A stretch of 64,000 nucleotides of DNA from Escherichia coli 042 (GTDB lineage Bacteria; Pseudomonadota; Gammaproteobacteria; Enterobacterales; Enterobacteriaceae). Position 1 is the first letter of the stretch. Every line of letters starts with the position of its first letter. The position numbers were made by a program, and so were the translations under genes. The stretch lies in assembly GCF_000027125.1 (NCBI RefSeq), contig NC_017626.1. The stretch is one strand, 5' to 3'. Under the pieces are notes generated by a model. That model did not search any database and was not told the origin of the DNA. It saw only the letters and a list, made by a program, of their open reading frames with translations. Shown piece after piece: positions 340 to 1,706 of this stretch.

Positions 340-1392
340 GTGAACATATATATCGGGTGGCTTTTCAAATTAATCCCTTTAATTATGGGCTTAATTTGTA
401 TCGCGTTAGGTGGCTTTGTGCTGGAAAGTTCTGGGCAAAGTGAGTATTTCGTCGCGGGTCATGTGCTGATTTCTCTGGCAGCCATATGCCTGGCATTATT
501 CACTACCGCATTTATTATCATTTCGCAGCTCACGCGCGGCGTTAATACGTTTTACAATACATTGTTCCCCATTATTGGCTATGCGGGGTCAATTATCACC
601 ATGATATGGGGTTGGGCACTGTTAGCAGGCAATGATGTGATGGCAGACGAGTTTGTTGCCGGCCATGTTATTTTTGGCGTTGGTATGATTGCCGCCTGTG
701 TATCGACAGTGGCAGCGTCATCCGGTCACTTTCTGCTCATTCCCAAAAACGCAGCAGGGAGCAAGAGCGATGGAACACCGGTACAGGCTTATTCTTCATT
801 AATCGGTAATTGCCTCATTGCCGTTCCCGTTTTACTCACCCTGCTCGGTTTCATTTGGTCTATTACGCTGTTACGTAGTGCCGACATAACTCCGCATTAT
901 GTCGCCGGTCACGTATTGCTTGGGTTAACCGCAATCTGTGCCTGTCTAATTGGCCTTGTTGCCACAATTGTCCATCAAACACGTAATACGTTCTCATCCA
1001 AAGAACACTGGCTGTGGTGTTATTGGGTTATTATTCTCGGCTCAATCACGGTGCTGCAGGGCATATACGTGTTAGTCAGCTCCGATGCAAGCGCCCGACT
1101 GGCTCCCGGCATTATCCTCATTTGCCTCGGAATGATCTGTTACAGCATATTCTCAAAAGTCTGGCTACTGGCACTGGTCTGGAGACGTACCTGTTCGTTA
1201 GCCAACAGAATACCGATGATTCCCGTCTTCACCTGCCTGTTTTGCCTTTTCCTGGCATCGTTTCTTGCAGAAATGGCGCAGACCGACATAGGGTATTTTA
1301 TTCCTTCGCGGGTTCTGGTCGGTTTGGGAGCGGTATGCTTTACGTTGTTCTCAATCGTTTCAATATTAGAAGCAGGTTCTGCTAAAAAATAA
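340..1392 (+). CDS. yhiM: Inner membrane protein YhiM (350 aa, GTG start inside the 241..1392 ORF)
   Basis: Multi-TM hydrophobic protein with three internal copies of an (Y/F)VAGHV motif; GTG at 340 preceded by GAGGAG at 328-333; length and position match K-12 YhiM from memory. Confidence 0.75.
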   Translation: MNIYIGWLFKLIPLIMGLICIALGGFVLESSGQSEYFVAGHVLISLAAICLALFTTAFIIISQLTRGVNTFYNTLFPIIGYAGSIITMIWGWALLAGNDVMADEFVAGHVIFGVGMIAACVSTVAASSGHFLLIPKNAAGSKSDGTPVQAYSSLIGNCLIAVPVLLTLLGFIWSITLLRSADITPHYVAGHVLLGLTAICACLIGLVATIVHQTRNTFSSKEHWLWCYWVIILGSITVLQGIYVLVSSDASARLAPGIILICLGMICYSIFSKVWLLALVWRRTCSLANRIPMIPVFTCLFCLFLASFLAEMAQTDIGYFIPSRVLVGLGAVCFTLFSIVSILEAGSAKK

Positions 1393-1706
1393 TTGCAACG
1401 TACCGGATAAAACCAGCGTTGACCATTTGCGTAACGCTGGTTTTTCTCAGGTATCATGAAATAACGCAGAATTAATGCATAGTGGTTAAGTATAAAAAAA
1501 CAGCAAAGTTGCTGATTTTTTCAACCTGTTCATATTTTATAAAGATCTGGCCACTGGGGGAGTTTTAATCACCTTTCCTTCCACCTTATATTAAGCATGG
1601 AGGGTTTCAGTTCACAGGCTCATTAGAAAATAATCACAAGATAACCACTATCAAAATTAGCTCATTTTTAATGCGACTCTAATAATTTTCATCTTTAGGA
1701 AATAGC

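Follow-up and report, generated by a model that had tools for sequence, protein, structure and literature searches.

YhiM, a DUF2776 inner-membrane protein of Escherichia coli, is built from five tandem transmembrane hairpins

Introduction

The 10 transmembrane (TM) helices of TehA pair up as hairpins that surround an inner pore of five helices, and TehA/SLAC1 is a genuine channel in which one Phe gates a hydrophobic pore (PMC3509319). One systematic search found no natural parallel barrels of the kind predicted for the E. coli protein YhiM besides TehA/SLAC1-type transporters. The designers of parallel barrels who reported it described the AlphaFold2 model of YhiM (P37630) as 'based on five central helices' and as the most striking natural match, and P37630 comes first in their supplementary tables (Albanese et al. 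2024, PMC11288890). Here we analyzed YhiM as encoded in a 64,000-nucleotide stretch of Escherichia coli 042 (contig NC_017626.1), hereafter the window.

An internal repeat in YhiM was not found described in either of the two papers that mention DUF2776, nor elsewhere in the searchable literature, where only the 2024 design paper touches on symmetry in this protein (PMC11288890). The gene, the family and, in passing, a five-helix-barrel model were known before. What is refined here is the five-fold repeat at the level of the sequence, its consensus, and the belts of Gly, Cys and Pro that run through it.

YhiM consists of five tandem two-helix units

YhiM has ten hydrophobic segments, and we found that it consists of five tandem copies of a two-helix TM hairpin. 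Briefly, we defined units U1 to U5 by cutting the protein after every second helix (Table 1) and compared their sub-alignments, built from 19 diverse DUF2776 members that are 24-50 % identical to YhiM, using the tool hhalign. All 10 unit pairs matched in register at 88-99 %, with E-values from 1e-6 to 1e-16. U1 matched U2-U5 at 96-99 % (E 1.6e-10 to 1.5e-16), the best pair being U1-U3 (E 1.5e-16, 69 columns). The alignments were free of gaps and ran across both helices over 48-69 columns. When the family profile was compared with itself, a shift by one unit aligned 254 columns (E = 3e-23, score 170) and a shift by two units aligned 187 columns (E = 6e-23, score 168), and shifts by three and four units gave E = 3e-9 and E = 3e-8. 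A sequence-only reading of this DNA had named profile self-comparison as the test that could refute an internal repeat, and on that test the repeat held.

The units could also be recognized in the single sequence of YhiM. Smith-Waterman comparison of U1 gave z-scores of about 11 with U3, U4 and U5 and of 6 with U2, always in register. Single even-numbered helices scored a mean of 45 against each other versus a mean of 19 against odd-numbered ones, and reversed sequences scored low. Profiles of single helices behaved in the same way, with even-versus-even comparisons at 81-98 %, odd-versus-even comparisons at no more than 3.8 %, and odd-versus-odd comparisons mixed (0.3-94.5 %).

The sequence-only reading had proposed that a two-helix unit was triplicated. 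The significant internal repeat and the two-helix hairpin survive this analysis, but the number of copies is five. If the triplication were the whole story, helices 1-6 would be repeats and the C-terminal four helices would be unrelated to them, in keeping with the exact [YF]VAGHV string being present only three times and with the insignificant single-sequence scores of U2-U5 (z = 1.3) and U2-U4 (z = 1.8). The comparisons of units, of helices and of the family with itself contradict this version. U4 matched U1, U2, U3 and U5 at 93-97 % and U5 matched U1-U4 at 88-98 %; H8 and H10 matched the remaining even helices at 84-96 % and 81-97 %, respectively; the three- and four-unit shifts were significant; and the Gly, G-L-G, Ile and Cys columns are common to all five even helices. 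We regard a triplication alone as very improbable. Separate origins of the units, with similarity produced by the compositional or hydrophobic bias of TM segments or by convergent packing motifs, are scarcely credible either: shuffle-based z-scores do overrate significance in TM segments and GxxxG-type small-residue packing motifs do arise repeatedly by convergence, but reversed profiles of the same composition and hydrophobic blocks reached no more than 5.4 % for any unit pair, odd helices did not match even ones, the unrelated 10-TM family TehA scored 0.1 % (from a shallow TehA alignment), and the in-register alignments extend without gaps over both helices.

Table 1 Features of the yhiM locus, with coordinates in the window and residue numbers in YhiM.
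Feature	Coordinates	Strand	Details
yhiM coding sequence (CDS)	340..1392	+	DUF2776 inner-membrane protein, 10 TM helices; GTG start, 350 aa plus stop
Repeat unit 1 (H1+H2)	340..549	+	aa 1-70; model helices 3-29 and 34-65
Repeat unit 2 (H3+H4)	550..777	+	aa 71-146; longer cytoplasmic linker with short helix
Repeat unit 3 (H5+H6)	778..999	+	aa 147-220
Repeat unit 4 (H7+H8)	1000..1191	+	aa 221-284; degenerate motif
Repeat unit 5 (H9+H10)	1192..1389	+	aa 285-350; degenerate motif
Motif copy 1, FVAGHV	448..465	+	aa 37-42; periplasmic end of H2
Motif copy 2, FVAGHV	652..669	+	aa 105-110; periplasmic end of H4
Motif copy 3, YVAGHV	898..915	+	aa 187-192; periplasmic end of H6
Degenerate motif copy 4, LAPGII	1099..1116	+	aa 254-259; gap-free alignment of five even helices
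Degenerate motif copy 5, FIPSRV	1297..1314	+	aa 320-325; gap-free alignment of five even helices
Terminator-like hairpin 3' of yhiM	1409..1446	+	A-tract, 13-bp-class stem, U-run; RNA fold
Second terminator-like hairpin, between convergent yhiM and yhiN	1501-1514		flanked by T-runs on both strands

A signature in the second helix of every hairpin

A shared signature, Φ-V-[AP]-G-[H/H/H/aromatic/R]-V-L-x-G-L-[GA]-A-I-C, runs through H2, H4, H6, H8 and H10, which are the second helices of their hairpins. Centered on the His position, here called offset 0, the five can be aligned gap-free in every column (Table 2). In the first helix of each hairpin a Pro or Gly is conserved. The scaffold of the even helix (G/A, V, L, G-L-G, I and C) is retained in units 4 and 5, while Ile or an aromatic residue and Arg replace the His; in YhiM the equivalents are I258 in copy 4 and R324 in copy 5.

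Table 2 Residues at aligned offsets of the five even helices.
Offset	Residues (H2/H4/H6/H8/H10, or all even helices)
-4	aromatic or aliphatic
-3	V/V/V/A/I
-2	A/A/A/P/P
-1	G/G/G/G/A
0	H/H/H/(E. coli I; family C, F, Y or W)/R
+1	V or I
+2	L
+4	S/G/G/G/G
+5	L
+6	small
+8	I or V
+9	C/A/C/C/C; H4 Cys at +11 instead
+12	L/V/L/I/L

The three copies of [YF]VAGHV that had been read from the sequence were recovered by a regular expression, which gave exactly three, and the 12-mers quoted for them are correct. Given the composition of YhiM itself, the per-site chance of this motif is 9.4e-8, so about 3e-5 copies would be expected, and an exact 5-mer of any kind was present three times in 5 of 20000 shuffles of the protein. 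DNA identity among the three copies is just 44-56 % over 54 nt, which marks the repeat as ancient and maintained at the protein level, rather than produced by recent duplication or gene conversion.

We then determined conservation as sequence-weighted frequencies across the DUF2776 family. Gly at offset -1 reached 0.85, 0.98, 0.95 and 0.86. The His at offset 0, which had been described as conserved, did not live up to that description, with frequencies of 0.38 for H41, 0.81 for H109 and 0.66 for H191, set against 0.85-0.98 for the neighboring Gly and 0.86-1.00 for the Cys. Position 258 is aromatic at 0.76 (F, Y or W in most members), and Arg occurs at position 324 at 0.75. The odd helices contribute P13 (0.95), P77 (0.95), P163 (0.86) and P295 (1.00), with G234 (0.89) in unit 4. 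This weighted conservation of the motif columns indicates that Ala-Gly is the strictly conserved core of the motif, and that the His, its least conserved part, is a variable specialization of three units.

There is one Cys in each motif helix, namely C50, C120, C200, C267 and C333 (0.86, 0.95, 1.00, 0.95 and 0.95, respectively), and each of these is conserved above all three His. Five near-invariant Cys within the membrane are unusual.

Topology and predicted fold

Each hairpin of YhiM has its tip in the periplasm and both of its ends in the cytoplasm. The segments on the cytoplasmic side contain 10 Lys+Arg and 3 Asp+Glu, and those on the periplasmic side contain 2 Lys+Arg and 9 Asp+Glu. A published prediction likewise gives YhiM 10 TM helices with both N- and C-termini cytoplasmic (PMC6604978). 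The positive-inside counts and this prediction together put every motif at the periplasmic end of its helix, which enters from outside and leads inward.

Structure prediction, which the sequence-only reading had suggested, yielded a confident AlphaFold2 model from a 76-sequence alignment (pLDDT 94.3, pTM 0.93) with ten long helices. The first three motif helices, as assigned by DSSP in the model, comprise residues 34-65, 102-130 and 184-214. A TM helix is thus present at each motif, as had been claimed, but the motif forms the first two turns of the helix and is not a segment before it. In the model each motif copy adjoins a short acidic periplasmic loop.

A search by sequence or family profile found no solved structure of a YhiM relative, the lone match being a designed barrel at E = 0.24. 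Foldseek gave a probability of 1.0 for the YhiM model against designed parallel barrels with 6-8 inner helices. The best natural structural match would be TehA/SLAC1. By its fold matches and its covariation YhiM would count as a single-chain parallel alpha-helical barrel of predicted geometry, a class in which parallel central helices of one chain make a closed ring and an outer helix links each of them to the following one.

The even helices as a putative central ring

The even helices differ from the odd ones in several respects. They are more conserved (2.66-2.94 versus 2.12-2.70 bits) and are conserved all round, whereas the odd helices are conserved on one face only and show a higher helical-periodicity amplitude. 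Small and polar residues make up 0.38-0.57 of the even helices versus 0.29-0.35 of the odd ones. Trp is on average scarcer in the even helices and is mostly located on the odd helices H3, H5 and H7.

To this we added mean-field direct coupling analysis (DCA) of 243 near-full-length sequences (effective number, Neff, 83), including 120 added Bacteroidota sequences from an Alistipes-clade set. A first run (Neff 54) had not separated even-even from odd-odd neighbors at loose thresholds, and the 120 extra sequences sharpened the signal. DCA retrieved the antiparallel ladders of the hairpins. Among the top 0.1 % (60 pairs), 7 pairs linked neighboring even helices in parallel register versus 1.26 expected (p = 3e-4). 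The even-even contacts spanned H2-H4, H4-H6 and H8-H10 as well as a ring-closing H10-H2 pair, I44-S323. The same 60 pairs included no even-even pair across the ring, and odd-odd neighbors numbered 2 versus 1 expected. On the helical wheel, the direction in which even helices covary with odd ones is about 260 degrees (P <= 0.001). Toward the two neighboring even helices the directions are about 350 and 146 degrees, neither of them significant by itself (P 0.08-0.22). Taken together, these data favor the motif helices as a closed central ring, in which the His (0 degrees) would belong to the inward half, close to where one helix meets the next. Four of the Cys, at offset +9 and about 180 degrees from the His on the wheel, would face the interface or the outward side.

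Putting together the AlphaFold2 model, the fold matches, conservation and covariation, we infer that the five hairpins would close into a single-chain pseudo-five-fold ring. The five parallel motif helices would stand side by side as the central barrel, with the five odd helices as buttresses facing the lipid. Packing would be the main role of the A-G, of the G-x-G further along and of the Cys, which would permit the close approach of five parallel helices. The position after the Gly would be the specialized one: H41, H109, H191, residue 258 and R324 would share one depth, and covariation suggests that the ring they make may occupy the inward-facing half of the helices, roughly two turns in from the periplasmic surface.

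Comparison with TehA/SLAC1 and other systems

YhiM resembles TehA/SLAC1 in having ten TM helices as five tandem hairpins. We found no sequence relationship to accompany this likeness. PF03595 (TehA/SLAC1/Mae1, the tellurite-resistance/dicarboxylate transporter family, TDT) gave no Pfam match at E <= 1 for YhiM and ten relatives. When the YhiM family was compared by hhalign with that of E. coli TehA, the probability was 0.1 %, with a TehA alignment that is shallow, at over 80 % identity. The architecture of YhiM is TehA/SLAC1-like, and membership in PF03595 is not supported.

The two systems differ further. Repeats are plain in the sequence of YhiM, whereas self-comparison of the TehA family, again from a shallow alignment, gave none. 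The conserved helices that form the ring are apparently the even ones in YhiM, running from periplasm to cytoplasm, and the pore helices of TehA are reportedly the odd ones. If the even helices of YhiM are indeed central, the order within its hairpins would be outer-inner, opposite to that of TehA. We identified no equivalent in YhiM of the conserved gating Phe of TehA, and homotrimeric assembly and anion conductance are features of TehA.

The designed single-chain parallel barrels sc-CC-6/7/8 (PDB 8qag, 8qai and 8qah) are soluble, whereas YhiM is a membrane protein. The designed toroids and repeat proteins 8u1a, DHR81 and dTor_9x57R are likewise soluble and have no evolutionary tie to YhiM. 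These de novo barrels and toroids have 6-9 repeats, compared with five in YhiM, and share 4-13 % identity with it. The MscL pentamer is a homo-oligomeric channel built from 2-TM subunits. Five copies of the presumed ancestral unit of YhiM, assembled as a homopentamer, would resemble it as a ring of 2-TM hairpins, each with one helix in the center; YhiM differs in having its five hairpins in one chain and diverged (H/H/H/aromatic/R), and sequence similarity to MscL is nil. One further candidate, DUF4079 for unit 3, was marginal (E = 0.0017, 19 bits versus a cut-off of 31.4) and absent in ten diverse family members, and was set aside as a chance match.

Possible functions of the putative ring

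Loss of yhiM impairs the export of gamma-aminobutyric acid (GABA) at pH 5, and its overexpression raises GABA export over pH 2.5-5.5 (PMC6604978). In the uropathogenic strain CFT073 under copper stress, ΔyhiM cells accumulate less Cu and are more resistant to it, and a ΔyhiM uropathogenic strain shows constitutive activation of the Cpx (CpxAR) system (PMC11005409). Further phenotypes of yhiM concern acid, heat and low osmolarity (cited in PMC6604978 and PMC11288890).

On balance we lean toward explaining the whole by a five-hairpin repeat that forms a pseudo-five-fold ring, with the motif helices in its center, and that acts as a channel-like facilitator, and we judge this explanation to be reasonably likely. 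The facilitator role by itself, that is, passage of small solutes across the inner membrane, is a tentative proposal with less than even chances. The GABA-export and copper-load phenotypes would fit such a role, and titration of a His/Arg ring at the periplasmic mouth would adjust activity at the mildly acidic pH at which YhiM matters.

A number of points weigh against this explanation. The central placement of the even helices and the orientation of the His come from sequence statistics rather than from measured distances, and at a loose 1 % DCA threshold odd-odd neighbors were enriched too (19 versus 10 expected). The center of the predicted inward face consists of conserved Val, Ile and Leu (offsets -3, +1, +8 and +12), so the lumen may be a packed or narrow hydrophobic core and not an aqueous pore. 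Conservation of the His is partial, most of all at H41. TehA was absent from the best 50 Foldseek matches of the YhiM model. The phenotypes are pleiotropic, and no transport assay with purified YhiM is on record. The authors of the copper study explained the fall in Cu load of the mutant by activated Cpx and induced copA, and noted that cells lacking YhiM still import Cu (PMC11005409). Finally, the gene neighborhoods at the five loci described below supply no functional clue.

The main rival to a channel-like facilitator is a non-conducting protein, in which case the transport-like phenotypes would be indirect. YhiM would then be a compact scaffold or sensor in the membrane, its hydrophobic core plugged and its motif purely structural, and its loss would perturb the envelope and activate Cpx. 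The CpxAR activation seen on loss of YhiM (PMC11005409), the diversity of the phenotypes (acid, heat and low osmolarity, Cu and GABA), the conserved Val, Ile and Leu of the predicted inward face, and the conservation of Gly and Cys above His all agree with this. However, a scaffold sits poorly with the rise in GABA export on overexpression over pH 2.5-5.5 (PMC6604978) and with an apparent closest natural fold, TehA/SLAC1, that is a genuine channel with a one-Phe gate (PMC3509319), and the conserved asymmetric H/H/H/aromatic/R ring is hard to ascribe to packing alone. We consider the scaffold rather unlikely.

It has also been suggested from the sequence that the His may line a channel or a metal site. 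In the latter case the repeated His and the five intramembrane Cys would form a metal site or conduction path, most likely for Cu(I), and YhiM would primarily handle copper. One Cys per motif helix at 0.86-1.00 goes beyond what packing needs, three His and one Arg would stand at one depth, and deletion of yhiM in CFT073 cuts the Cu load and lifts Cu resistance (PMC11005409). On the other hand, the His are only partly conserved (H41 at 0.38), four of the Cys would point away from the His face and toward the interface or the outside, and the Cu phenotype depends on the strain and is absent in K-12, which together make a dedicated Cu site less likely. Fe, Mn and Zn levels are unaffected, Cu import continues without YhiM, and besides Cpx activation and copA induction the authors invoke an N-terminal MXXXM motif (PMC11005409), which the 042 allele does not have. 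We regard a copper-handling role as improbable.

A bolder version of the channel-like facilitator is a long shot in our estimate. It would make YhiM/DUF2776 a second natural family of single-chain pseudo-pentameric channels, unrelated in sequence to the first and derived from a fused homopentameric 2-TM channel. The diverged H/H/H/aromatic/R ring on the periplasmic side and the five-Cys belt would then make up a gate that responds to pH, and possibly to thiols or Cu, and that lets GABA or further small solutes pass under acid and envelope stress.

Distribution and evolution of the repeat in DUF2776

The five-unit architecture is kept in all full-length DUF2776 members examined, which come from Proteobacteria, Actinobacteria and Bacteroidota. 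The repeat would go back to ancient tandem duplication, its starting point being a 2-TM unit whose original working form was presumably a homo-oligomer. No standalone 2-TM relative turned up among the family matches listed, and no search was dedicated to finding one. Per column, the two-unit shift of the family self-comparison scores above the one-unit shift, and U1-U3 is the top unit pair. The stronger two-unit shift and the U1-U3 match hint at a possible 4-TM (two-hairpin) intermediate in the duplication history.

Three metagenome contigs, each seen once, contain complete-looking DUF2776 genes that are short of repeat pieces. In P0017 (284 aa, L012:315-1169), the YFVA of unit 3 is fused directly to the even helix of unit 4, so that H6 and H7 are gone and four hairpins are left. 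P0002 (291 aa, L013:1334-2209) is a further gene missing repeat pieces, and in P0090 (113 aa) unit 1 is fused to the end of unit 5. These could be inter-repeat deletions or assembly artefacts.

The yhiM gene and its surroundings

RefSeq labels the CDS at 340..1392 as yhiM in E. coli genomes. Pfam DUF2776 (PF10951) covers residues 1-347 of the 350 (E = 5e-158, 526 bits versus a gathering cut-off of 26.1), and NCBIfam models gave no match to YhiM. In K-12, the GTG start and a transcription start 22 nt 5' of it (a318 in the window) were both mapped experimentally (PMC6604978). The reading frame extends open 5' of GTG 340 to ATG 298 and to ATG 241, the latter giving 383 aa. ATG 298 is the start used by a database cluster of 4700 member sequences (P0151, 364 aa), and it sits upstream of the mapped K-12 transcription start. 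Another allele (P0152, 354 aa, 90 % identical) begins MGFKM, which resembles the 'MXXXM' N-terminal motif tied to copper in uropathogenic strains in a 2024 mBio paper (PMC11005409). At this position the 042 window reads E-E-F-K-V, with V encoded by the GTG, and is without MXXXM.

The first of the two terminator-like hairpins downstream of yhiM folds as RNA at -20.5 kcal/mol (z = -4.4 versus shuffles), and both are bidirectional in appearance. Inverted repeats downstream of yhiM were remarked on in a 2017 paper (PMC6604978).

In E. coli RefSeq genomes the gene order is a DUF4049 gene, yhiM, convergent yhiN, then pitA, uspB and uspA. In strain CB6837, just ahead of the point that corresponds to the window start, yhiJ and a 529-aa paralogue form a pair of adjoining DUF4049 genes (L001:484-3957), which lie upstream of yhiM and on the other strand. 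The first 3 kb of the window were covered to at least 80 % in only 3569 of the 5422 matching E. coli genomes. Outside E. coli, we examined five loci, from Bordetella, Nonomuraea, an Alistipes-group member and two short metagenome contigs. The yhiM homologue was a stand-alone gene in each neighborhood, and no conserved partner genes were found among them.

Implications

YhiM recurs in screens for acid, heat and low-osmolarity, copper, and envelope stress, while a mechanism is lacking and the family is still a 'domain of unknown function'. The structural insight gained into this poorly understood protein is real but modest. The analysis singles out H41, H109, H191, residue 258 and R324 for mutation, together with C50, C120, C200, C267, C333 and the Gly beside each His. 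For protein designers and evolutionary biologists, YhiM would be a natural five-helix parallel barrel whose duplication history is legible in its sequence. If five diverged hairpins close into a TehA/SLAC1-like ring, the 350-residue unknown would shrink to a 70-residue problem.

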